The notes under the pieces are model-generated. The model did not search any database, was not told where the DNA came from, and worked only from the letters and a program-made list of their open reading frames with translations. The position numbers and the translations under genes are program-made. A stretch of 64,000 nucleotides of DNA from Shigella phage ESh24, in sequence record ON528734; one strand, written 5' to 3'. This document shows positions 2,051 through 52,350 of the stretch, in pieces. The stretch's first letter is position 1. Each line of letters begins with the position of its first letter.

Positions 2051-2791
2051 ATGATTAGTGACTCTATGACAGTTGAAGAAATCCGTCTTCATTTAGGGCT
2101 TGCATTAAAAGAAAAAGATTTCGTAGTTGATAAAACTGGTGTTAAAACTATTGAAATTATTGGCGCATCATTTGTAGCAGATGAACCGTTTATTTTTGGC
2201 GCTCTTAATGATGAATACATTCAGCGTGAACTTGAATGGTATAAATCTAAGAGTTTGTTTGTTAAAGATATTCCAGGTGAAACACCAAAGATTTGGCAGC
2301 AGGTAGCATCTTCTAAAGGTGAAATTAACTCGAATTATGGTTGGGCTATCTGGTCAGAAGATAACTATGCTCAATATGACATGTGTTTAGCTGAACTTGG
2401 TCAAAATCCTGATTCTCGACGTGGTATCATGATTTATACTCGTCCATCCATGCAATTTGACTACAATAAAGATGGTATGTCAGATTTCATGTGTACTAAT
2501 ACAGTACAGTACCTGATTCGTGATAAGAAAGTCAATGCAGTAGTAAGCATGCGCTCAAATGACGTGGTCTTCGGATTCCGTAATGATTATGCATGGCAAA
2601 AATACGTATTAGATAAATTAGTATCTGATTTGAATGCAGGCGATTCAACTCGTCAGTATAAAGCAGGTTCTATTATATGGAATGTCGGAAGTCTTCATGT
2701 ATATTCTCGTCATTTTTACTTGGTTGATCATTGGTGGAATACTGGCGAAACTCATATTGTGAAAAAAGACTATAAAGGTGAGTGGAAATGA
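2051..2791 (+). CDS. 42: dCMP hydroxymethylase gp42
   Basis: 246 aa; thymidylate-synthase-like fold protein at the T4 gene 42 position. Confidence 0.9.
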   Translation: MISDSMTVEEIRLHLGLALKEKDFVVDKTGVKTIEIIGASFVADEPFIFGALNDEYIQRELEWYKSKSLFVKDIPGETPKIWQQVASSKGEINSNYGWAIWSEDNYAQYDMCLAELGQNPDSRRGIMIYTRPSMQFDYNKDGMSDFMCTNTVQYLIRDKKVNAVVSMRSNDVVFGFRNDYAWQKYVLDKLVSDLNAGDSTRQYKAGSIIWNVGSLHVYSRHFYLVDHWWNTGETHIVKKDYKGEWK

Positions 2792-3630
2792 TTCAATTCG
2801 TAATTCCAAGCTATCAACGTGTAGGGGCAGTTTCTGCCATTGATATGTTTCCGACTGATTATGAACCTCATATTGTAGTGCGTGAACACGAAGAAAAAGC
2901 TTATTATGATGCCTATGGGTCTAAAGCTAAAATTATAACTATTCCTGATGATGTAAACGGAATTGCCGGTACTCGTAAAGCAATTACTGATATGTATGCA
3001 GGTCAACGAATCTGGATGATTGACGATGATACTACTATTCGTATGAGTTCAATGCGAAAAAGAGATGACCGTCGTTGTGTAGATAAAGTCAATCAATTAA
3101 CCCGTGAACAGTTCTATGAATTGATTCAATACGTTGAAGATGCCATGGATTGCGGGTATTATCACGGTCATGCTCGGCTACCAATTTTTAAAATTACTTC
3201 ATCTTGGGGTAATTATCGTGAAAATTCATATGGATTCACGAATACATGGTATGACCTTGGAAAACTTACGACAGAACAAATTGGGTATGGAAAAATTGAT
3301 TTATGCGAAGATATGTATGCATTTCTCAATTTAATTAATCAAGGTTATCCGCATTTGGCCTTGTTCAAATATCTTGTTGTATCCGGAAAAGCACAGGCTC
3401 CTGGCGGGTGCAGTTCAATTCGTAGTAATTCTAAACATAATAGAGCGCTTGAGCAGATTAATAGAGAGTTTCCAGAGCAAGCTCGTTGGAAAACTTCTAA
3501 TATTGAAAAACGAAAATCGTTGGGTGAAGAAGATGAACCATTAAAGGTTCTTCGCATGTGTGTTTCGCGCAAAGAAAAATCAGAAGCATTTCATAAGTTT
3601 AATGCTATTCATCCGATAGCAGTTGATTAA
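2788..3630 (+). CDS. DNA glucosyltransferase, probably T2/T6-type beta-glucosyl-HMC-alpha-glucosyltransferase (not T4 beta-gt)
   Basis: ATG overlaps the gene 42 stop; 280 aa; sits at the beta-gt locus between 42 and uvsX but does not resemble the recalled 351-aa T4 beta-gt. Confidence 0.6.
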   Translation: MIQFVIPSYQRVGAVSAIDMFPTDYEPHIVVREHEEKAYYDAYGSKAKIITIPDDVNGIAGTRKAITDMYAGQRIWMIDDDTTIRMSSMRKRDDRRCVDKVNQLTREQFYELIQYVEDAMDCGYYHGHARLPIFKITSSWGNYRENSYGFTNTWYDLGKLTTEQIGYGKIDLCEDMYAFLNLINQGYPHLALFKYLVVSGKAQAPGGCSSIRSNSKHNRALEQINREFPEQARWKTSNIEKRKSLGEEDEPLKVLRMCVSRKEKSEAFHKFNAIHPIAVD

Positions 3631-3707
3631 TGCCTAAATTTATTGTGTTATAATTACTCTATCTTTAACCAGTGAGGAAAATATAATGATGCCTATGGAA
3701 AAAATGA

Positions 3708-4889
3708 ATGTCTATTGCAGATTTAAAATCCCGTTTGATTAAAGCTTCCACTTCTAAAATGACTGCTGAACTGACTACATCTAAATTCTTTAATGAAAAG
3801 GATGTAATCCGTACAAAAATCCCAATGCTTAATATTGCTATTTCTGGTGCGATTGATGGCGGTATGCAGTCTGGTTTAACTATTTTCGCAGGGCCTTCTA
3901 AACACTTTAAATCAAATATGTCTTTGACTATGGTTGCGGCATATTTGAACAAATATCCTGACGCGGTTTGTCTATTCTATGATAGTGAATTTGGTATTAC
4001 TCCAGCTTATTTGCGATCTATGGGAGTTGACCCGGAACGAGTAATTCATACACCAATCCAGTCAGTTGAACAGCTGAAAATTGATATGGTGAACCAGCTT
4101 GAAGCTATTGAGCGTGGTGAAAAAGTTATTGTATTCATCGACTCAATTGGTAATATGGCTTCCAAGAAAGAAACGGAAGATGCCTTGAATGAAAAATCTG
4201 TGGCAGATATGACTCGTGCTAAATCACTGAAGTCATTATTCCGTATTGTTACTCCTTATTTTAGTATTAAAAATATCCCATGTGTTGCGGTTAACCATAC
4301 AATTGAAACAATTGAAATGTTTAGTAAAACCGTGATGACAGGTGGTACAGGCGTAATGTATTCGGCTGATACCGTATTCATTATCGGTAAACGTCAGATT
4401 AAAGATGGTTCTGATCTTCAAGGGTATCAATTTGTTCTAAATGTAGAAAAATCTCGTACCGTTAAAGAAAAAAGTAAATTCTTTATTGATGTTAAATTTG
4501 ACGGCGGTATCGATCCTTATTCTGGATTGTTAGATATGGCTCTAGAATTAGGATTCGTGGTAAAACCTAAAAATGGTTGGTATGCTCGTGAATTTCTTGA
4601 TGAAGAAACCGGCGAGATGATTCGCGAAGAAAAATCTTGGCGTGCAAAAGATACTAATTGCACTACATTCTGGGGTCCTTTATTTAAGCATCAACCATTC
4701 CGAGATGCTATTAAACGTGCTTATCAGTTAGGTGCTATTGATAGTAATGAAATTGTTGAAGCTGAAGTTGATGAATTAATTAACTCAAAAGTTGAAAAAT
4801 TTAAATCTCCAGAAAGTAAAAGTAAATCAGCTGCTGATTTAGAAACTGACCTAGATCAGCTAAGTGATATGGAAGAATTTAATGAATAA
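3708..4889 (+). CDS. uvsX: RecA-like recombinase UvsX
   Basis: 393 aa; near-identical to recalled T4 UvsX (LKSRLIKASTSK..., Walker A GPSKHFKS). Confidence 0.95.
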   Translation: MSIADLKSRLIKASTSKMTAELTTSKFFNEKDVIRTKIPMLNIAISGAIDGGMQSGLTIFAGPSKHFKSNMSLTMVAAYLNKYPDAVCLFYDSEFGITPAYLRSMGVDPERVIHTPIQSVEQLKIDMVNQLEAIERGEKVIVFIDSIGNMASKKETEDALNEKSVADMTRAKSLKSLFRIVTPYFSIKNIPCVAVNHTIETIEMFSKTVMTGGTGVMYSADTVFIIGKRQIKDGSDLQGYQFVLNVEKSRTVKEKSKFFIDVKFDGGIDPYSGLLDMALELGFVVKPKNGWYAREFLDEETGEMIREEKSWRAKDTNCTTFWGPLFKHQPFRDAIKRAYQLGAIDSNEIVEAEVDELINSKVEKFKSPESKSKSAADLETDLDQLSDMEEFNE

Positions 4890-9371: not shown

Positions 9372-10711
<1,340 letters not shown>

Positions 10712-10771: not shown

Positions 10772-11290
10772 ATGGCTCACTTTAATGAATGTTCACAACT
10801 GATCGAAGGCGCTGATAAAGCTCAAAATGAATATTGGGATATTCTCGGTGATGAAAAAGACCCGCTGCAGGTTATGCTTGACATGCAGAAATCTTTGCAG
10901 GTTCGTTTAGCTAAAGATAAACCTGAATATAACCGTCATCCTGATGATTTGGCTACTGCAGGTGAAGTTGTTGATTGGCTGCGTAATCAGAAAGATTATA
11001 TTGACGATGAATTCCGTGAACTTCTGACTTCTCTTGGTGGTATGAGTAATGGTGAAAAAGACGCATCTGCTGTATGGAAACCTTGGAAGTCGCAGCATGG
11101 TGAACGTCGTGAAACTCTGATTACTGATTTGTCTCCACAGGACCAGTTAGAAATCAAATTCGAAATGATTGATATTCTCCATTTTGTTCTGAACATGTTT
11201 CAAGGTCTTGGTCTTACAGCAGAAGAAATCTTTAAACTTTATTATCTGAAAAATGCTGAAAATTTCGCTCGTCAAGACCGAGGTTATTAA
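10772..11290 (+). CDS. 56: dCTP pyrophosphatase gp56
   Basis: 172 aa from ATG 10772 (track ORF starts at an upstream TTG); matches T4 gp56. Confidence 0.9.
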   Translation: MAHFNECSQLIEGADKAQNEYWDILGDEKDPLQVMLDMQKSLQVRLAKDKPEYNRHPDDLATAGEVVDWLRNQKDYIDDEFRELLTSLGGMSNGEKDASAVWKPWKSQHGERRETLITDLSPQDQLEIKFEMIDILHFVLNMFQGLGLTAEEIFKLYYLKNAENFARQDRGY

Positions 11291-11320
11291 CAGCTCGTCT
11301 TAAAAGCCGCGAGAATTTAT

Positions 11321-11328
11321 TATAAATA
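11321..11328 (+). promoter_or_regulatory. Late promoter for soc
   Basis: Exact TATAAATA about 30 bp upstream of the soc ATG. Confidence 0.75.
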
Positions 11329-11358
11329 ATCATGTAATTTAAATAAAAGGAGAATTAC

Positions 11359-11604
11359 ATGGCTAGTACTCGCGGTTATGTTAATATCAAAACATTTGAG
11401 CAGAAATTAGATGGAAATAAGAAAATTGAAGGAAAGGAAATTTCAGTAGCTTTCCCTCTTTATTCTGACGTTCACAAAATTTCTGGTGCTCATTACCAGA
11501 CGTTCCCTTCAGAAAAAGCAGCATATACTACTGTATATGAAGAAAATCAGCGTACTGAATGGATTGCTGCAAACGAAGATTTGTGGAAAGTAACTGGTGG
11601 TTAA
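11359..11604 (+). CDS. soc: Small outer capsid protein Soc
   Basis: 81-aa ORF matching recalled T4 Soc. Confidence 0.9.
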   Translation: MASTRGYVNIKTFEQKLDGNKKIEGKEISVAFPLYSDVHKISGAHYQTFPSEKAAYTTVYEENQRTEWIAANEDLWKVTGG

Positions 11605-12260: not shown

Positions 12261-12746
12261 ATGGAAGCGATTTTGTTTGAAATGTATATTAGCAGTAATA
12301 GCATGTCGTTTGCTAAAGATGTTCCAATTACTGTAGCCGTAATGATTGATAAGGGTTATTGTGACCCAATGTATCTCGTAGAAAATTTCGTTTCAATGCC
12401 AGTTCCAGAAGATGCTGAAATAAAACTTAAAAAGATCGGAATTATTGAAACTGTGCCAAATATTCCGTTTAGAGCAATTGAAGCATTTACTAAATCCGAA
12501 TACATTAATGTTAACACAGAAAAATATAATGATAAACCTTTATCTTTCTATTCATATGATTCAGTATATAGTTGGAAAATAGATAAAGGAAATAAATTTA
12601 TAATTGTGAGTGAAGACGCTTTATCATACTTTATTTCTTCTGTATGGAATATTTTAAATCCAAATTTGCTAAAAATTCATGAATTTGACGGTGTCCATAC
12701 TATTGTTTTAGGTAAAATAAATGAAAGCTCTCAAGAAGATTCTTGA
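12261..12746 (+). CDS. mrh: Mrh-like protein (161 aa from ATG 12261)
   Basis: GAGGAAAATT-ATG; length matches recalled T4 mrh; position between soc and modB. Confidence 0.5.
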
Positions 12747-21812: not shown

Positions 21813-21839
21813 ATTCCCGAAACCAAACGAGGATAAGTG

Positions 21840-23657
21840 ATGATTAAGAATGAAATTAAAATTCTGAGCGATATTGAACATATCAAAAAGCGTAGTGGCA
21901 TGTATATTGGCTCTTCTGCTAATGAAATGCATGAGCGCTTTCTGTTTGGTAAATGGGAAAGTGTTCAGTATGTACCTGGTCTTGTTAAGCTTATTGATGA
22001 AATTATCGATAACTCAGTAGATGAAGGTATTCGTACTAAGTTTAAATTCGCGAATAAAATTAATGTTACCATTAAAAATAATCAGGTAACAGTTGAAGAT
22101 AACGGTCGCGGTATTCCACAAGCGATGGTTAAAACACCTACCGGTGAAGAAATTCCTGGTCCAGTTGCTGCTTGGACTATTCCAAAAGCAGGTGGTAACT
22201 TTGGCGATGATAAAGAACGTGTCACCGGTGGTATGAATGGTGTTGGTTCTAGTTTGACAAACATTTTTTCTGTGATGTTTGTCGGTGAAACTGGCGATGG
22301 TCAAAATAATATTGTAGTTCGTTGTTCAAATGGCATGGAAAATAAATCATGGGAAGATATTCCTGGAAAATGGAAAGGAACTCGTGTTACTTTCATTCCA
22401 GATTTTATGTCATTTGAAACTAATGAGCTGTCCCAAGTTTATCTTGACATTACACTGGATCGTCTCCAGACGCTTGCTGTAGTTTATCCTGATATTCAAT
22501 TTACCTTTAATGGTAAAAAGGTTCAGGGCAATTTTAAGAAATATGCACGACAGTATGATGAGCATGCTATTGTTCAAGAACAAGAAAATTGTTCTATTGC
22601 GGTTGGTCGTTCACCGGATGGATTTCGTCAATTAACTTACGTGAATAACATTCATACTAAGAATGGTGGCCATCACATTGATTGTGTTATGGATGATATT
22701 TGTGAAGACCTTATTCCACAAATCAAACGTAAGTTCAAAATTGATGTCACTAAAGCACGTGTCAAAGAATGTTTGACTATCGTTATGTTTGTCCGTGATA
22801 TGAAAAACATGCGATTTGACTCTCAAACTAAAGAACGACTTACTTCTCCATTTGGCGAAATTCGTAGTCATATTCAACTTGATGCTAAAAAGATTTCACG
22901 TGCTATTTTAAATAATGAAGCAATTTTAATGCCAATTATTGAAGCTGCTTTGGCTCGTAAATTGGCGGCAGAAAAAGCAGCAGAAACTAAAGCAGCTAAA
23001 AAGGCTTCTAAAGCTAAAGTTCATAAACATATTAAAGCGAATCTTTGTGGTAAAGATGCTGACACTACATTGTTCTTAACCGAGGGTGATTCAGCTATCG
23101 GATATCTTATTGATGTTCGCGATAAAGAACTTCATGGCGGTTATCCATTGCGTGGTAAAGTTCTTAATAGCTGGGGTATGTCATATGCCGATATGCTTAA
23201 AAACAAAGAACTATTTGATATTTGCGCAATCACTGGATTGGTTCTTGGTGAAAAAGCTGAAAACTTGAATTATCATAATATTGCTATTATGACCGATGCT
23301 GACCATGATGGTCTAGGAAGCATTTATCCTTCTCTTCTTGGATTTTTTAGTAATTGGCCAGAACTGTTTGAGCAAGGAAGAATTCGCTTTGTCAAAACTC
23401 CTGTAATCATCGCTCAGGTCGGTAAAAAACAAGAATGGTTTTATACAGTCGCTGAATATGAGAGTGCCAAAGATGCTCTACCTAAACATAGCATCCGTTA
23501 TATTAAGGGACTTGGCTCTTTGGAAAAATCTGAATATCGTGAGATGATTCAGAACCCAGTATATGATGTTGTTAAACTTCCTGAGAACTGGAAAGAGCTT
23601 TTTGAAATGCTCATGGGAGATAATGCTGACCTTCGTAAAGAATGGATGAGCCAGTAG
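21840..23657 (+). CDS. 39: DNA topoisomerase II large subunit gp39, contiguous 605-aa form (gene 39/60 fusion as in T2/T6)
   Basis: 605 aa from ATG 21840; GHKL ATPase N-terminus; C-terminal part corresponds to what T4 encodes separately as gp60. Confidence 0.93.
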   Translation: MIKNEIKILSDIEHIKKRSGMYIGSSANEMHERFLFGKWESVQYVPGLVKLIDEIIDNSVDEGIRTKFKFANKINVTIKNNQVTVEDNGRGIPQAMVKTPTGEEIPGPVAAWTIPKAGGNFGDDKERVTGGMNGVGSSLTNIFSVMFVGETGDGQNNIVVRCSNGMENKSWEDIPGKWKGTRVTFIPDFMSFETNELSQVYLDITLDRLQTLAVVYPDIQFTFNGKKVQGNFKKYARQYDEHAIVQEQENCSIAVGRSPDGFRQLTYVNNIHTKNGGHHIDCVMDDICEDLIPQIKRKFKIDVTKARVKECLTIVMFVRDMKNMRFDSQTKERLTSPFGEIRSHIQLDAKKISRAILNNEAILMPIIEAALARKLAAEKAAETKAAKKASKAKVHKHIKANLCGKDADTTLFLTEGDSAIGYLIDVRDKELHGGYPLRGKVLNSWGMSYADMLKNKELFDICAITGLVLGEKAENLNYHNIAIMTDADHDGLGSIYPSLLGFFSNWPELFEQGRIRFVKTPVIIAQVGKKQEWFYTVAEYESAKDALPKHSIRYIKGLGSLEKSEYREMIQNPVYDVVKLPENWKELFEMLMGDNADLRKEWMSQ

Positions 23658-35068: not shown

Positions 35069-35848
35069 TTAAATCCAGGAACCATAGATCGTGCCTGTTG
35101 CACCCCATGATGGCGAAGAACCGAATACCGCTCTACCTGGAGCACCACCGCCGGATCTAGATAAGTGATTACCCCATCCATCTCCACCCCGACCTCCAGC
35201 ATCACCGCCATTGCCACCGCCAAATTGACTTGTATTACCACCGCCGCCTGGACCGTCATAACTAGCATTGCCACCAGGCCAATTAACACCACCGCCACCG
35301 AGACCAAATGGTCTGCCACCGCCACCACCAGCTGTAGCATACGCGTCCCAGCTATTCTTTAACGACACTGCACCACCGCCACCGCCGCCTGATGCAATAA
35401 CGCCATAGTTCCAAATGCGGAGTCGTCCACCAATATCATTTTGGATTACGTCGCCACCATTAGTGCCTGGGCTTCCATTTACGCTACCATTACCACCTCG
35501 GCCCCACATATGAACACCACCATGAATATTCAAAGTAACATATTCGTTAGGAGTATCACCATACATGAAGAATAAAGGAACGTCTTTAGAATATGATACT
35601 AAGTTGCCTGTGATATTAAACACTATAGGAGCGCCACCGGCTTCAAAACAACGGTCACGGAACCATTGACCATTAAAGTTATGGTCTGCTCCAAGAGTGT
35701 GAATAATTTCTCTTGAACGTCCAGCGAATTGTGACATCCAAGATGGGTTCCCTAGACGTAATTCTCTAGAAGCTGCTGACATCCAACGTTGACCTGTTTC
35801 AGCCACTGCTGATGTTCCAATCCAACCAGGTATTCCTACTACTGCCAT
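35069..35848 (-). CDS. 38: Receptor-recognising adhesin gp38 (T2/T6 type)
   Basis: 259 aa with multiple Gly-rich stretches (GGGGGG) between variable segments. Confidence 0.85.
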
Positions 35849-35878
35849 AAAAACCTCCAGGGCCCGAAGGCCCTTTTA

Positions 35879-38800
35879 TTATTTTATCAATGATTTAATT
35901 AATGCTTTCAACTCAGCAATTTCAGATTTCAATTCCTTGATTTCGTCAGTATGCTCGTTGATAGTGGCAGTATTTAAACCAATAATACCGTTATAGTTCA
36001 AACGAAGCAGTCCGGTCTCTTTATCTTCAGAAACAAGTTCAGGAAATACTTTTTGAACTTCCTGGGCGATTAAACCGGCGGACGGTTTAACTTCATCAGT
36101 AACGGGGTTTTTAAGCAGATAAGTATAACCACCTAAGAGTTTAGATTTCTCTTGTGCGTTATCGATAAGCTTAATTTCCGATTTACAACGAATATCAGAA
36201 CGAATATAAACGTCGTTAACGTCAATGTTATCGCGAACATACATACCGGCGTTACAGTGGAAGTTAACGTTACTAAAGGTCTGGGCCAGCCCAGCTCGAA
36301 TACTGAATACACCTTGACCATTAGCATACATGTTGTAGATGCCATCGCTTTCCCAGACCAATCCAGTGTCATTGTCACCAATTGCTATGCATGGCGTAGA
36401 CCAAGCGGGTTCAATACCTACACCAATACCCGCCCAACCGGAAACAATTCTTCCTGGGGAAGTAAACTGCCCGTTGGCCAAAAATTGATAAACCGCTGCA
36501 GGATGTCCTTGTTCTGGTGTATTTTCAGTTGAACGAACAATTATACAACCGGTACCCCAACCTGCGGTACCTGAACGTAAAGTACCTAGCTCTACACTTG
36601 TGTTATATCCATACCCCGTTGAAGAACTTCGTCCTTTAATAATAGGATAGTACACATTCCCGTTTAATTCGCCATGTTCTACAAATATAGGAGCTTCAAG
36701 GTTATATTGTAGGCTAATCATACCTGAGTTTTGAGAGACCCATCTTGTAGCATTAACGTACATACGGTTTTCACTCATTTGAACCAAGCCAAAAGCGCTT
36801 GGGCTAAATGTAATGGCGCCAGCGTCATTCAAATCAATACCGGTTGTTGTTTTATAGTTGTAAAAAGATACTGTGTCAGATTGGCCACCTTTACCAACAA
36901 ACCAACTATTAGCACCACCAACTTCTGAACGAATATGCGAACTATTAATTGCATTAGGTGCTCTAATTACTAAAGCATCATCGGCCGCAGCAATAGTTAA
37001 TTTTCCGGTCATCGTATCGCCTTCTTTGGCAATACGAGTAGCTATTGCATCGCGAATATTTGTAATGTCTCCTGCTGAAGTAAACGTTTTCCAAATATCC
37101 GAGAAAATATTACCATTACGAGCAATAGCAGCTTCGCCACCGCCGACCAGAACGTTATCGGGAAAATTAACGGTACCATCGGCGTTAAATCTTGATGTAT
37201 GGCCTTGTGAACCATCTTCTTTGATATGGTGTAAAACAAATGTACCCGAATTAATTTCAGTACCTAAAGACCAAACAGCTTTACTGTTTAAAAACTTCTG
37301 TTTAACAATAGGATAATATTTACTTACTGCGTCATCATCGATTTCCTGGAAAATAGGAGCTGCTTGAACATATTGAATATCATAACCACCAGCGCCCGCG
37401 CCGTGACCAGTAAATTTAATATAACCGTTTGCTGCGAACGTATTGTAACTTGATTGTAAATCTGGAATAGTAACTTTACCAGTATCTAAAGCCATACTAA
37501 ACGGGCGAAGTGGACCGATATCGCCGTGTTTACCTTCACCGTAAGCAGTTGGAATAATATGAAGACTACCTTCTGAACGTCTAAAAATGGCTCCATAATC
37601 TGCGTTCCAAATACGAAGCGCATTCACTGCTCCAGATGAAATTTCACCTGTTGTGTGAACTCCTCTATCTCCAGCAGTAACACCAGATGATTCAAATGAA
37701 CCATTAACGTTCATTTCTACTTCGCCAGTAGTAAGTCTTTGAATATAGCTCATCCAGCTAGTTGCATCAGAAATTTCCATAATGTTTTTACGGATACCTC
37801 CGCTTGGATCAACAAACGTATTACCCCAAACTTTAATATCCATATTATCAACCGAGCTGTATCCTGTTGTGTTGCCTCTAAACATTAGTGTAGAAGAATT
37901 ATTTCTACCATCTATATTAACAGAACCGCCAATAACGTCAATATTACCAGGAGTAACTAACAAACCGCCGTGAGTATTAATGTTTGTAGTACCCTTACCG
38001 CGGAAATAATGATGATAATTACCACCTTGATAATATCCTAAAAGAGTTTGACCGTCGCCGTATGCGTTATTATCGTGGTATGTTACTACAGTAGCAAGAG
38101 CATAGTTTTCTGTCGGTGGCGTTGTCATAAGAATCCCATCCGGAGAATAACCCATAACCATTTTTCTAAGGCTTTGTGTTTCCGCAGGACCGTAAATGAA
38201 AGTTCTTGTTCCGTTGTTTACTGTATGAAAATATCCGTCCTGGTGCCATTTTAGCCCGGTATCATTATCACCAAGAGCAATCGAAGCAGTCCCTAATTCA
38301 GAATATCCTTTAGAGCCACCCGGAAGACCTATAGAAATAGAATGGCCTGCTTTCAATCCACCGGCCCAGTTAAACGACCAAAGATAAGTGTCTAAGCCAT
38401 CTCCGGAATACCAGGTTATTCCGTCATTAACATTAACTTCGTGGAAAATACCTGCTCCTACAGCATTTCGCATAACACGTAGGTGGTTAATAGCCGTTTC
38501 GCCTTCTGCCATTGGAGTGTTATTTGATAATGAATAGATATCATAATCGCCTGTCTTCTTCCCGTTTGTAATAACTTTGTCGGTCAGAATTTGTGGAGAC
38601 GAAATAGATTTCCATGCTGATACTTCAGGTGAAGTAAATAGGCCACTGCCTGAAAATGCATAAGTGCTTTCGCTACCAGCGGCGTAGTCTTGAACCCTGA
38701 TATTAAGTACTTGTGTAGTTAAACCATCATTAGCCGGGGCATAAATGATTCCACGTTCGCGACTATTGCCATCGAAAAAACGAACATGCGCTGTACCTGA

Positions 38801-39145
38801 ACTTTTTGTAATAAGTTCTCCGCCTTCAGTCATAATCTGCCCAGCAGCAATAATATCACGAGTTACTCGAGCAATACCAGTTAAATTAAAATTACCAGTC
38901 TGGGTGAATGTACCGTTTAAAGTATAATCACCAGTTTGGTTATAATTGCCTTTATGAATAACATTCCCGTCAATACTACCGCCTTTAGCAAAACCTAAAT
39001 CAATAATATTTCCCTGGTCATCTTTAGTAAAAAGTACACGGTCTTTTAAGTTTATAGCCAATTCACCTTCGGCTAATACTGAAGCAGCTGGACGTTGACC
39101 TGCCGTTTTGCTTCTTTTAAATTGTATTTGTTTTAAAGTAGCCAT
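35879..39145 (-). CDS. 37: Long tail fibre distal subunit gp37
   Basis: 1088 aa; position between 36 and 38. Confidence 0.9.
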   Translation of the reverse strand: MATLKQIQFKRSKTAGQRPAASVLAEGELAINLKDRVLFTKDDQGNIIDLGFAKGGSIDGNVIHKGNYNQTGDYTLNGTFTQTGNFNLTGIARVTRDIIAAGQIMTEGGELITKSSGTAHVRFFDGNSRERGIIYAPANDGLTTQVLNIRVQDYAAGSESTYAFSGSGLFTSPEVSAWKSISSPQILTDKVITNGKKTGDYDIYSLSNNTPMAEGETAINHLRVMRNAVGAGIFHEVNVNDGITWYSGDGLDTYLWSFNWAGGLKAGHSISIGLPGGSKGYSELGTASIALGDNDTGLKWHQDGYFHTVNNGTRTFIYGPAETQSLRKMVMGYSPDGILMTTPPTENYALATVVTYHDNNAYGDGQTLLGYYQGGNYHHYFRGKGTTNINTHGGLLVTPGNIDVIGGSVNIDGRNNSSTLMFRGNTTGYSSVDNMDIKVWGNTFVDPSGGIRKNIMEISDATSWMSYIQRLTTGEVEMNVNGSFESSGVTAGDRGVHTTGEISSGAVNALRIWNADYGAIFRRSEGSLHIIPTAYGEGKHGDIGPLRPFSMALDTGKVTIPDLQSSYNTFAANGYIKFTGHGAGAGGYDIQYVQAAPIFQEIDDDAVSKYYPIVKQKFLNSKAVWSLGTEINSGTFVLHHIKEDGSQGHTSRFNADGTVNFPDNVLVGGGEAAIARNGNIFSDIWKTFTSAGDITNIRDAIATRIAKEGDTMTGKLTIAAADDALVIRAPNAINSSHIRSEVGGANSWFVGKGGQSDTVSFYNYKTTTGIDLNDAGAITFSPSAFGLVQMSENRMYVNATRWVSQNSGMISLQYNLEAPIFVEHGELNGNVYYPIIKGRSSSTGYGYNTSVELGTLRSGTAGWGTGCIIVRSTENTPEQGHPAAVYQFLANGQFTSPGRIVSGWAGIGVGIEPAWSTPCIAIGDNDTGLVWESDGIYNMYANGQGVFSIRAGLAQTFSNVNFHCNAGMYVRDNIDVNDVYIRSDIRCKSEIKLIDNAQEKSKLLGGYTYLLKNPVTDEVKPSAGLIAQEVQKVFPELVSEDKETGLLRLNYNGIIGLNTATINEHTDEIKELKSEIAELKALIKSLIK

Positions 39146-46482: not shown

Positions 46483-47132
46483 TTAAACTCCGCATGCCTG
46501 CTGGTGGTGAAAGATACATTGATGGTAAATCAGTTTATAAATTATACTTAATGATAAAACAACATATGAATGGAAAATATGATGTTATTAAGTACAATTG
46601 GTGCATGCGGGTGTCTGATGCCGCTTATCAAAAGCGAAGGGATAAGTATTTTTTCCAGAAGTTATCAGAAAAATATAAATTAAAGGAACTTGCTTTAATC
46701 TTTATAAGCAATTTGGTTGCTAACCAAGATGCTTGGATTGGTGACATCTCTGACGCTGATGCACTTGTGTTTTATCGTGAATATATCGGACGCTTAAAGC
46801 AAATTAAATTTAAGTTTGAAGAAGATATTCGCAACATTTATTATTTTAGTAAAAAAGTTGAAGTTTCTGCTTTTAAAGAAATCTTTGAATATAATCCAAA
46901 GGTTCAATCAAGTTATATTTTTAAACTGCTTCAGTCGAATATAATTTCGTTTGAAACGTTTATCTTGCTTGATTCGTTTTTAAATATAATTGATAAACAT
47001 GATGAACAGACTGATAATTTAGTTTGGAACAATTATTCTATAAAGTTAAAGGCTTATAGAAAAATTTTAAATATTGATTCACAGAAAGCTAAAAGTGTTT
47101 TCATTGAAACTGTGAAATCTTGCAAGTATTAA
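46479..47132 (+). CDS. 59: Helicase loader gp59
   Basis: 217 aa (T4 gp59 length), upstream of 32. Confidence 0.9.
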   Translation: MIKLRMPAGGERYIDGKSVYKLYLMIKQHMNGKYDVIKYNWCMRVSDAAYQKRRDKYFFQKLSEKYKLKELALIFISNLVANQDAWIGDISDADALVFYREYIGRLKQIKFKFEEDIRNIYYFSKKVEVSAFKEIFEYNPKVQSSYIFKLLQSNIISFETFILLDSFLNIIDKHDEQTDNLVWNNYSIKLKAYRKILNIDSQKAKSVFIETVKSCKY

Positions 47133-47231
47133 TTGCTTATTATAAATAGATTATAATTATCTCACTGACCAGCTATGAGGTCATACATCGTCATAGCACC
47201 AACTGTTAATTAAATTAAAAAGGAAATAAAA
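47133..47231 (+). promoter_or_regulatory. Gene 32 control region: MotA-box middle promoter, TATAAATA late promoter, translational operator
   Basis: TTGCTTA at 47133-47139 with TATAAT 12 bp downstream; TATAAATA at 47141-47148; leader ACCAGCUAUGAGGUCAUACAUCGUCAUAGCA resembles the recalled gene 32 pseudoknot, followed by an AU-rich tract. Confidence 0.6.
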
Positions 47232-48140
47232 ATGTTTAAACGTAAATCTACTGCTGAACTCGCTGCACAAATGGCTAAACTGGCTGGAAATAAAGGTGGT
47301 TTTTCTTCTGAAGATAAAGGCGAGTGGAAACTGAAACTCGATAATGCGGGTAATGGTCAAGCAGTAATTCGTTTTCTTCCGTCTAAAAATGATGAACAAG
47401 CACCATTCGCAATTCTTGTAAATCACGGTTTCAAGAAAAATGGTAAATGGTATATTGAAAACTGTTCATCTACCCACGGTGATTACGATTCTTGTCCAGT
47501 ATGTCAGTATATCAGTAAAAATGATCTGTACAACACTGACAATAAAGAGTACAGTCTTGTTAAACGTAAAACTTCTTACTGGGCTAACATTCTTGTTGTA
47601 AAAGACCCAGCTGCTCCAGAAAACGAAGGTAAAGTATTTAAATATCGTTTCGGTAAGAAAATCTGGGATAAAATCAACGCAATGATTGCAGTTGATGTTG
47701 AAATGGGTGAAACTCCGGTTGATGTAACTTGTCCGTGGGAAGGTGCTAACTTTGTACTGAAAGTTAAACAAGTTTCTGGATTTAGTAACTACGACGAATC
47801 TAAATTCCTGAATCAATCTGCGATTCCAAACATTGATGATGAATCTTTCCAGAAAGAACTGTTCGAACAAATGGTTGACCTTTCTGAAATGACTTCTAAA
47901 GATAAATTCAAATCGTTTGAAGAACTAAGCACTAAGTTCAGTCAAGTTATGGGAACTGCTGCTATGGGTGGTGCCGCAGCAACTGCCGCTAAGAAAGCTG
48001 ATAAAGTTGCTGATGATTTGGATGCATTCAATGTTGATGACTTCAAAACAAAAACTGAAGATGATTTTATGAGCTCAAGCTCTGGCAGTTCATCTAGTGC
48101 TGATGACACGGACCTGGATGACCTTTTGAATGACCTTTAA
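47232..48140 (+). CDS. 32: Single-stranded DNA binding protein gp32
   Basis: 302 aa; zinc site C..H..C..C; acidic Ser/Asp-rich C-terminus. Confidence 0.95.
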
Positions 48141-50082: not shown

Positions 50083-50430
50083 ATGAATTTTAATTATTAC
50101 CCTATTCTATTAGAAAAAGATGATAAGCAGCCAAAGTGGCAGGGTCCTCAGTTTATTAAAGGCGTCTATCAATTAGTAGTTCCTAAAGACAAGATTTATA
50201 GCAGTTGTTTCACTGAATCCGCCTGCAGTATTTTCGGTAATAGTTCTCCGTATTGGAATTTTGACATAAAGCTGGATAGAAATATCGATATTTGGTTGAA
50301 AGCTATGGATATTGGTAATATCACGTTTGATGAGAATAATTATCATATTATTGGTCGCTTTTCCAAACGCGGTAAAGAATTGTATTTCACACCTGAAATT
50401 GAAAGAAAATTTGATGCTAAACCGTATTGA
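50083..50430 (+). CDS. Hypothetical protein (115 aa) between frd and td
   Basis: ORF with GGCGGA RBS; no recognisable motif. Confidence 0.65.
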   Translation: MNFNYYPILLEKDDKQPKWQGPQFIKGVYQLVVPKDKIYSSCFTESACSIFGNSSPYWNFDIKLDRNIDIWLKAMDIGNITFDENNYHIIGRFSKRGKELYFTPEIERKFDAKPY

Positions 50431-50473
50431 TTATTTAGCTTCATAAAATGTATTATAATATATAAGGTACTAA

Positions 50474-51022
50474 ATGAAACAATACCAAGATTTAATTAAA
50501 GACATTTTTGAAAATGGCTATGAAACCGATGACCGAACAGGCACAGGAACAATTGCTTTGTTTGGTACTAAATTACGCTGGGATTTAACTAAAGGTTTTC
50601 CTGCAGTAACAACTAAGAAGCTCGCTTGGAACGCATGTATTGCTGAGCTTCTATGGTTTATTTCCGGTTCTACCAATGTTAATGATTTACGTCTTCGTAC
50701 TCATGGTAGTCTTATTCAAGGTAAAACTATCTGGGATGACAATTATGAAAACCAAGCTAAAGACCTAGGATATCATAGTGGTGAACTTGGTCCAATTTAT
50801 GGAAAACAGTGGCGTGATTTCGGTGGTGTGGATCAATTAGTTGAAACTATTGATCGTATTAAAAAATTACCAACTGATCGACGTCAAATCGTTTCAGCAT
50901 GGAATCCAGCTGAAATCAATCAAATGGCATTACCGCCCTGTCATATGTTCTATCAGTTTAATGTGCGTAATGGCTATTTAGATTTGCAGTGGTATCAACG
51001 ATCAGTAGATGTTTTCTTGGGT
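50474..51022 (+). CDS. td: Thymidylate synthase, exon 1
   Basis: 183 codons ending ...VDVFLG immediately before the intron. Confidence 0.9.
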
Positions 51023-52038
51023 TAATTGAGGCCTGAGTATAAGGTGACTTATACTTGTAATCTATCTAAACGGGGAACCTCTCTAGTAGACAATCCCGTG
51101 CTAAATTGTAGGACTGCCCTTTAATAAATACTTCTATATTTAAAGAGGTATTTATGAAAAGCGGAATTTATCAGATTAAAAATACTTTAAACAATAAAGT
51201 ATATGTAGGAAGTGCTAAAGATTTTAAAAAGAGATGGAAGAGGCATTTTAAAGATTTAGAAAAAGGATGCCATTCTTCTATAAAACTTCAGAGGTCTTTT
51301 AACAAACACGGTAATGTGTTTGAATGTTCTATTTTGGAAGAAATTCCATATGAGAAAGATTTGATTATTGAACGAGAAAATTTTTGGATTAAAGAGCTTA
51401 ATTCTAAAATTAATGGATACAATATTGCTGATGCAACGTTTGGTGATACATGTTCTACACATCCATTAAAAGAAGAAATTATTAAGAAACGTTCTGAAAC
51501 TGTTAAAGCTAAGATGCTTAAACTTGGACCTGATGGTCGGAAAGCTCTTTACAGTAAACCCGGAAGTAAAAACGGGCGTTGGAATCCAGAAACCCATAAG
51601 TTTTGTAAGTGCGGTGTTCGCATACAAACTTCTGCTTATACTTGTAGTAAATGCAGAAATCGTTCAGGTGAAAATAATTCATTCTTTAATCATAAGCATT
51701 CAGACATAACTAAATCTAAAATATCAGAAAAGATGAAAGGTAAAAAGCCTAGTAATATTAAAAAGATTTCATGTGATGGGGTTATTTTTGATTGTGCAGC
51801 AGATGCAGCTAGACATTTTAAAATTTCGTCTGGATTAGTTACTTATCGTGTAAAATCTGATAAATGGAATTGGTTCTACATAAATGCCTAACGACTATCC
51901 CTTTGGGGAGTAGGGTCAAGTGACTCGAAACGATAGACAACTTGCTTTAACAAGTTGGAGATATAGTCTGATCTGCATGGTGACATGTAGCTGGATATAA
52001 TTCCGGGGTAAGATTAACGACCTTATCTGAACATAATG
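51023..52038 (+). mobile_element. td group I intron (1016 nt) carrying the I-TevI gene
   Basis: 5' end TAATTGAGGCCTGAGTATAAGGTGAC... and 3' end ...CTGAACATAATG match the recalled T4 td intron; exon frames join across it. Confidence 0.85.
51154..51891 (+). CDS. I-TevI: Homing endonuclease I-TevI (GIY-YIG)
   Basis: 245 aa; GIYQIKNTLNNKVYVGSAKDFKKRWKRH GIY-YIG motif. Confidence 0.9.
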   Translation: MKSGIYQIKNTLNNKVYVGSAKDFKKRWKRHFKDLEKGCHSSIKLQRSFNKHGNVFECSILEEIPYEKDLIIERENFWIKELNSKINGYNIADATFGDTCSTHPLKEEIIKKRSETVKAKMLKLGPDGRKALYSKPGSKNGRWNPETHKFCKCGVRIQTSAYTCSKCRNRSGENNSFFNHKHSDITKSKISEKMKGKKPSNIKKISCDGVIFDCAADAARHFKISSGLVTYRVKSDKWNWFYINA

Positions 52039-52350
52039 CTACCATTTAATATTGCATCATATGCTGCGTTAGTTCATATTGTAGCTAAGATGTGTAATCT
52101 TATTCCTGGAGATTTGATATTTTCTGGCGGTAATACTCATATCTATATGAATCATGTGGAACAATGTAAAGAAATTTTACGTCGTGAACCTATGGATTTA
52201 TGCGAATTGCAATTAAAATTTCCAGATGAATTTGATGAATGGGACACAGAATCGCAGGTATTTTGGTTGAGTCAATTCGCAAAGCCGCATAATTTTGTTC
52301 TTAACAACTATGAATCACACCCTTCTATTAAAGGAAAGATGGCGGTGTAA
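52039..52350 (+). CDS. td: Thymidylate synthase, exon 2
   Basis: Begins LPFNIASYA... in frame with exon 1; combined 286 aa. Confidence 0.88.

Follow-up and report, generated by a model that had tools for sequence, protein, structure and literature searches.

A T2/T6-type glucosyltransferase gene, ba-gt, very probably occupies the slot between gene 42 and uvsX in Shigella phage ESh24

The gene that separates gene 42 from uvsX in Shigella phage ESh24 is very probably the Tequatrovirus ba-gt gene, encoding the glucosyl-DNA beta-glucosyltransferase that is also known as beta-glucosyl-HMC-alpha-glucosyltransferase, and a T6-like pattern of activity is proposed for its product. The analysis covered one stretch of 64,000 nucleotides from sequence record ON528734 (hereafter the window), in which ba-gt is the only open reading frame (ORF) resembling the TET-associated glycosyltransferases, or TAGT family. 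We take the corresponding ba-gt (ggt) enzymes of T2 and T6 to be EC 2.4.1.28.

The ORF listing of the window contains a frame that runs without interruption from 2782 to 3630 on the plus strand. Reading from the ATG at 2788 to the TAA at 3628-3630 gives a protein of 280 residues, and starting at an in-frame GTG further upstream, at 2782, would lengthen it to 282; the ATG is the start in all annotated homologues. Because 280 codons at 36% G+C are not expected by chance, the frame is regarded as a real gene, and tblastn finds homologues of it in 688 records of the phage collection. Purifying selection acts on it: 23-30 synonymous but only 2-9 non-synonymous codon changes separate it from each of eight relatives. 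The earlier note's description of a 280-aa ORF lying between gene 42 and uvsX is thus borne out, both by the ORF listing and by the matches of the flanking genes.

The first four nucleotides of ba-gt overlap the end of gene 42 (ATGA, 2788-2791, in which TGA ends gene 42), an arrangement that suggests co-transcription and translational coupling of the two genes. Judging from its letters, the Shine-Dalgarno-like sequence inside the end of gene 42 (Table 1) would serve in ribosome binding. At the other end, the putative middle promoter in the spacer before uvsX probably marks the downstream limit of the ba-gt unit and serves uvsX; in phage ASO78A, the annotation lists the equivalent site as a MotA-type middle promoter with 1 mismatch. 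A scan for sigma-70 promoters and terminators around ba-gt returned sites no commoner than in shuffled sequence, and is uninformative for early and middle promoters of the T4 type.

Table 1. Coordinates of ba-gt and associated features in the window
Feature	Position	Strand	Remarks
gene 42, dCMP hydroxymethylase	2051..2791	+	97% identity to T4 gp42; PF00303
Shine-Dalgarno-like AAAGGTGAG	2774..2782	+	core AGGTGA 6 nt upstream of the ba-gt ATG, within the end of gene 42
ba-gt, beta-glucosyl-HMC-alpha-glucosyltransferase (very probable), TAGT family	2788..3630	+	predicted GT-A fold; DDD at residues 79-81
T4 middle-promoter-like site, GCCT-N13-TATAAT	3632..3654	+	in the ba-gt/uvsX spacer
uvsX	3708-4889		downstream of ba-gt; 90% identity to T4; PF21134 and PF00154
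REase-like ORF, 186 aa	9372-9932	+	abuts dam (9932-10711)
gene 56, dCTPase/dUTPase	10772..11290	+	74% full-length identity to T4 gp56 (tblastn)

The identity of the product is indicated by its alignment with the T2 beta-glucosyl-HMC-alpha-glucosyltransferase, to which it is 98.6% identical over 280 of 280 residues without a gap. In a three-way alignment it is 97.9% identical to the T6 enzyme, one record of which is a single residue shorter. The phrog_842 profile, which bears the same enzyme name, matches residues 1-275 with E=1.8e-88, and the Pfam TAGT profile PF20691 scores 38.4 bits against a gathering cut-off of 27.5, the match spanning positions 3-205 of the 205 in the profile. Megablast with the segment 2000-4900 returned 770 phage records, and in the best of these, 98% identical, the gene is annotated as beta-glucosyl-HMC-alpha-glucosyltransferase. 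Neither NCBIfam nor PADLOC yielded a family matching the ORF, and a phmmer search of the PDB gave chance matches only (E>=1.5), with no solved structure for the ba-gt family to be found there by sequence. The earlier reading of the gene as the T2/T6 enzyme is therefore supported by close identity to both proteins, by synteny, and by the phrog_842 and PF20691 matches.

In T4, the same slot is held by beta-gt, and position alone would favour the view that the window protein is a highly diverged T4-type beta-glucosyltransferase. Against this, BLASTP aligned the ORF with T4 beta-gt over eight residues at best (E=2.2), the two proteins differ in length (280 aa here as opposed to 351 aa in T4), and the fold predicted for the window protein is GT-A, with no T4 glucosyltransferase among its best 50 structural matches. 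The earlier claim that the protein does not resemble the 351-aa T4 enzyme accordingly holds, and the full-length alignment with T4 beta-gt that had been named in advance as the contrary outcome is absent in BLASTP. A diverged beta-gt is refuted by both BLASTP and the structure comparison, and there is next to no chance of its being correct. T4 alpha-gt aligned with the ORF no better than E=0.64, and neither PF09198 (T4 beta-gt) nor PF11440 (T4 alpha-gt) has a Pfam match in it. No homologue of either T4 enzyme lies elsewhere in the window, the alpha-gt locus being situated beyond its start.

The assignment of ba-gt to the TAGT family can be followed to the level of individual residues. When 1.84 billion representative proteins were searched with a profile, 2136 TAGT-family relatives, counted as representative clusters, were recovered at E<=1e-3. 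Across sets of 152 and 103 diverse members, R11, D79-D80-D81, D175, G186, G206-G207 and R212 are invariant or nearly so, and every one of these residues is kept by the window protein. An AlphaFold2 model based on the 103-sequence alignment reached a pLDDT of 94.8 and a pTM of 0.92, superseding an earlier model from ten sequences (pLDDT 70; Foldseek E>=1.7e-3, TM 0.2-0.34). With the newer model, Foldseek returned 192 PDB matches at E<=1e-3, the top ones all being GT-A transferases, and among these were the inverting GT2 enzymes TarS, TarP and K4CP, with TM values of 0.45-0.53 over ~250-290 columns.

The model itself displays the features that characterize GT-A enzymes, namely a single Rossmann-like alpha/beta/alpha domain and an Asp-rich (DXD) motif that follows a hydrophobic beta-strand: strand 74-78 (IWMID) leads into the D79-D81 triplet in the classical GT-A DXD layout. 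From this model, we infer that the window protein is a GT-A-fold, GT2-like transferase. In the mechanism proposed for it, DDD 79-81 would bind metal and the UDP-sugar, and the invariant pair E174-D175 would be the likely general base. The reaction would be an inverting one, converting UDP-alpha-Glc into a beta linkage, since formation of a beta-1,6 linkage from UDP-alpha-glucose requires inversion.

The TAGT family is, however, large and functionally little studied, as its 2136 representative clusters illustrate, and homologues have been found beside beta-gt or without any other GT (PMC13216743; phage-collection rows H233-H237). These circumstances lend some weight to an enzyme of different specificity, which might act directly on bare 5-hmC, or else use a different sugar or acceptor linkage. 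For the window protein this is very improbable, since an enzyme 98-99% identical to its counterparts in T2, T6, EH2 and Solly is very unlikely to have changed specificity. It differs from the EH2 and Solly proteins by two conservative substitutions only, I18L and K46R; three changes, likewise conservative, set it apart from QOTSP, and nine from Geo. I18 and K46 are its sole private residues among the sequences compared, and both lie at variable positions.

The chemistry expected of ba-gt can be placed in the pathway described for T2 and T6. There, gp56 and gp42 swap dCTP for hm-dCTP, such that DNA is made with 5-hmC; alpha-gt then puts alpha-glucose on ~70-75% of the 5-hmC, and ba-gt turns alpha-glucosyl-hmC into gentiobiosyl-hmC (PMC2993671, PMC13216743, PMC11078745). 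Genes 42 and 56 of the window belong to this same cytosine-replacement pathway, the former supplying the hm-dCMP precursor and the latter removing dCTP. The window ba-gt would take host UDP-glucose as donor and attach a further glucose to the alpha-glucose through a beta-1,6 linkage to give gentiobiosyl-hmC. Its acceptor would be made by an alpha-gt encoded ~10 kb beyond the window start. As the window begins inside gene 43, the presence of alpha-gt in ESh24 is read from relatives and is to be presumed: the gene sits between genes 47 and 55 in all five that were examined (T4, ASO78A, T2, T6 and Geo).

Published analyses of related phages illustrate what the enzyme does to phage DNA. Deletion of ba-gt from T6 leaves alpha-glucosyl-hmC only, with no gentiobiosylation, and increases sensitivity to Brig1 (PMC11078745). 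In Durham Tequatroviruses that possess alpha-gt and a TAGT gene and are without beta-gt, LC-MS revealed no beta-glucosyl-hmdC (PMC13390438). Solly, QOTSP, EH2 and others contain ~1/3 5-hmdC and ~2/3 alpha-gentiobiosyl-hmdC (~1:0:2 in Solly and EH2), while Geo, EL and BGP show a ratio of ~1:2:2 for hmdC, alpha-glucosyl and gentiobiosyl forms, and the gentiobiosyl-hmC share is 5% in T2 and 72% in T6 (PMC13390438). The ratio of mono- to di-glucosylation therefore differs among phages that all have ba-gt. The earlier note had drawn from the gene the implication of a different hypermodification pattern, and both the LC-MS of the Durham phages (PMC13390438) and the T6 deletion (PMC11078745) back it.

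For ESh24, no beta-glucosyl-hmC is predicted, because the locus holds no T4-type beta-gt, and between a quarter and a third of the hmC would be expected to stay bare. Since R11 is kept and very few residues separate the protein from its EH2, Solly and QOTSP counterparts, a T6-like, mostly gentiobiosyl pattern is expected in its DNA, and not a T2-like one with 5%. The exact mono-/di-glucosyl ratio is uncertain, as the window carries dam and an adjacent REase-like ORF, like Geo and T2.

The comparison with T2 deserves particular attention, as its ba-gt (L004:16001-16843) carries two substitutions, R11H and P251S, neither of which is present in the window allele. The T2 allele is identical in eight records (seven of T2, together with SV76), and the other eight near-identical alleles are without both changes; the comparison covered nine Tequatrovirus alleles of >=97% identity, and of these only the T2 allele has R11H. 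R11, by contrast, is invariant in 150 of 150 aligned diverse members of the TAGT family. This distribution suggests that the T2 allele may be hypomorphic and the window allele of the active type, and it makes R11H a candidate cause of the difference between T2's 5% and T6's 72% gentiobiosyl-hmC, a link that was not met in the literature consulted. More speculatively, natural ba-gt alleles might largely set the ratio of mono- to di-glucosylation in T-even DNA, a proposal that is tentative and on balance doubtful. If it is true, the hypermodification pattern, and with it the sensitivity to Brig1-like glycosylases and GmrSD-type nucleases, would be readable from sequence.

The same alleles bear on the question of whether ba-gt in ESh24 might be present yet weak or inactive, as it apparently is in T2, leaving the DNA mostly mono-alpha-glucosylated with a few per cent of gentiobiosyl-hmC. 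The T2 gene is 98.6% identical and yet accompanies only ~5% gentiobiosyl-hmC, the module of dam and REase-like ORF is common to the window, T2 and Geo, and lesions in some laboratory T6 records indicate that the gene can be lost in culture. Nevertheless, the window allele contains neither the T2-private R11H, at a residue otherwise invariant, nor P251S; purifying selection acts on its intact ORF, and the phages with the closest alleles have ~2/3 gentiobiosyl-hmC. A weak enzyme is thus improbable, and an active ba-gt remains the preferred reading.

Both T6 sequences in the phage collection carry lesions in ba-gt, a different one in each, that are absent from the window allele. In AP018814 (RefSeq copy NC_054907; L003:16001-16840), a 3-nt deletion removes one Asp of the invariant DDD, and in MH550421 (L008:1-843) there is a stop codon at Q10, the CDS being annotated from Met20, with the full DDD present. 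These lesions may be laboratory-stock mutations or sequencing errors, and they matter where T6 serves as a reference for the enzyme. The DDD deletion was also considered as a cause of the high activity in T6 and was dropped, given the full DDD of MH550421 and the ~2/3 gentiobiosyl content of QOTSP, EH2 and Solly, which have the DDD.

The dam gene of the window is 97.7% identical to T4 Dam (PF02086, E=5e-51). Restriction-endonuclease signals in the adjoining 186-aa ORF are weak: PADLOC REase_II matches with E=8e-5, and the match to Pfam DpnII, a GATC enzyme (E=0.0045), does not reach the cut-off. The ORF falls in phrog_8706, a family of unassigned function, and has no relative in the PDB. T2, ASO78A and Geo are among the 163 phage records that contain it, T4 and T6 lack it, and its counterpart in Geo, EL and BGP has been called 'restriction enzyme-like' (PMC13390438). 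By sequence, the ORF may encode a phage-borne, REase-like partner of Dam.

Having ba-gt in this slot is the normal state of T4-like coliphages, already known and common, with T4 as the exception. Counted at >=90% identity of the proteins, the phage collection includes ~501 alpha-gt records, 472 TAGT (ba-gt) records and 29 of T4-type beta-gt, and the sum of the latter two, 501, fits the presence of one or the other enzyme in the slot of every Tequatrovirus with alpha-gt; ba-gt occurs in ~94% of T-even records. Of 753 phage genomes with a GT, a 2026 NAR paper found only 6 that combine alpha-gt with beta-gt (PMC13216743), and ba-gt as the majority state of T-even phages has been on record since at least 2010 (Petrov et al., PMC2993671). 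The earlier framing of the gene as unusual was consequently misleading, and current understanding is unchanged by the ba-gt of ESh24.

There is, instead, a lesson for annotation, in that T4 is a poor reference for the slot between gene 42 and uvsX. Public labels for ba-gt are inconsistent, ranging over 'beta glucosyl transferase', 'putative beta-glucosyltransferase', 'b-gt', 'glycosyltransferase like family 2' and 'hypothetical protein'. The reverse error occurs in RB55 (H228), whose true T4-type beta-gt is labelled 'beta-glucosyl-HMC-alpha-glucosyl-transferase'.

The significance of ba-gt lies in what it indicates about the sugar coat of the phage DNA, which is predicted to consist of alpha-glucosyl- and gentiobiosyl-hmC with a fraction of bare 5-hmC and no beta-glucosyl-hmC. 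According to published work on relatives, such a coat affects the fate of the phage when it encounters Type IV restriction (McrBC and the GmrSD/BrxU systems), Brig1, and CRISPR nucleases. In that work, the Brig1 glycosylase targets alpha-glucosyl-hmC, while gentiobiosyl-hmC is resistant in vitro.

Beyond this locus, a tblastn map with 48 T4 proteins shows the window to be a collinear Tequatrovirus segment, which begins within the C-terminal part of gene 43, proceeds through 42, uvsX, 41, 61, dam, 56, dda, 39, rIIA, rIIB and 52, and reaches cd by way of motA, the tail-fibre genes, 32 and nrdA; arn, alc and denB are present as well. The phage-collection records closest to it share ~96% identity across 25 kb. 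Conservation relative to T4 is mosaic, with gene 56 at 74% and mrh (12261-12743) at 76%, and dam, soc, modA, modB and 61 at 96-99%. The homing-endonuclease genes segA (which in T4 lies between beta-gt and uvsX), segF and segG are all absent (3631-3707, 11290-11359 and 47129-47232), and gene 39 (21837-23657, +) is a single ORF of ~605 aa without the gene 60 split and translational bypass region of T4.

Other departures from T4 were noted in the tail-fibre and td regions. The distal tail-fibre protein gp37 (35069-39145 region, minus strand) has 1088 aa and 34% identity to its T4 counterpart, and in place of a T4-type gp38, which is absent, stands a glycine-rich ORF of 259 aa (35069-35848), presumably a T2/T6-type gp38 adhesin. 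By sequence comparison, these differences imply a receptor specificity unlike that of T4. Within the region 50083-52350 (+), the td gene is split as in T4, into exon 1 at 50474-51022 (91%) and exon 2 at 52039-52347 (72%), and the ORF between the exons, at 51154-51888, is 99.6% identical to I-TevI. The Rfam scan of the window reported no family at gathering score, and thus no group I intron at td, where the inserted ORF presumably disrupts the match to the model. An additional ORF of 115 aa (50083-50430) lies between frd and td, at a point where the T4 genes overlap.

Among known systems, T4 beta-gt (PF09198; PDB 1JG7) resembles the window protein in its genome slot, in transferring glucose from UDP-glucose in beta linkage to a modified DNA cytosine, and in acting after alpha-gt. 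Yet the two are unrelated in sequence, and the acceptor of the T4 enzyme is bare 5-hmC, as opposed to alpha-glucosyl-hmC for ba-gt. The folds likewise differ, that of T4 beta-gt being GT-B (PMC13216743) and that of the window protein being predicted as GT-A. The best structural matches, TarS, TarP and K4CP (PDB 5TZ8, 6H1J and 2Z87; E ~5e-6 to 1e-5), are inverting, DXD-dependent enzymes that use UDP-sugars, which fits the formation of a beta linkage by ba-gt; however, they are only 10-13% identical, possess extra domains, and act on teichoic acid or polysaccharide rather than on DNA.

The remaining members of the TAGT family, from phages and metagenomes, have R11, DDD, D175, G186, GG206-207 and R212 in common with the window protein, although most are only 20-30% identical to it. 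Many of them are accompanied by TET/JBP dioxygenases or occur without another GT, and not with gp42 and alpha-gt, and few of them have an experimentally assigned substrate. It is the ba-gt genes of T2 and T6 that agree with the window gene in length, in their slot between gene 42 and uvsX, in the ATGA overlap, and in the invariant motifs.
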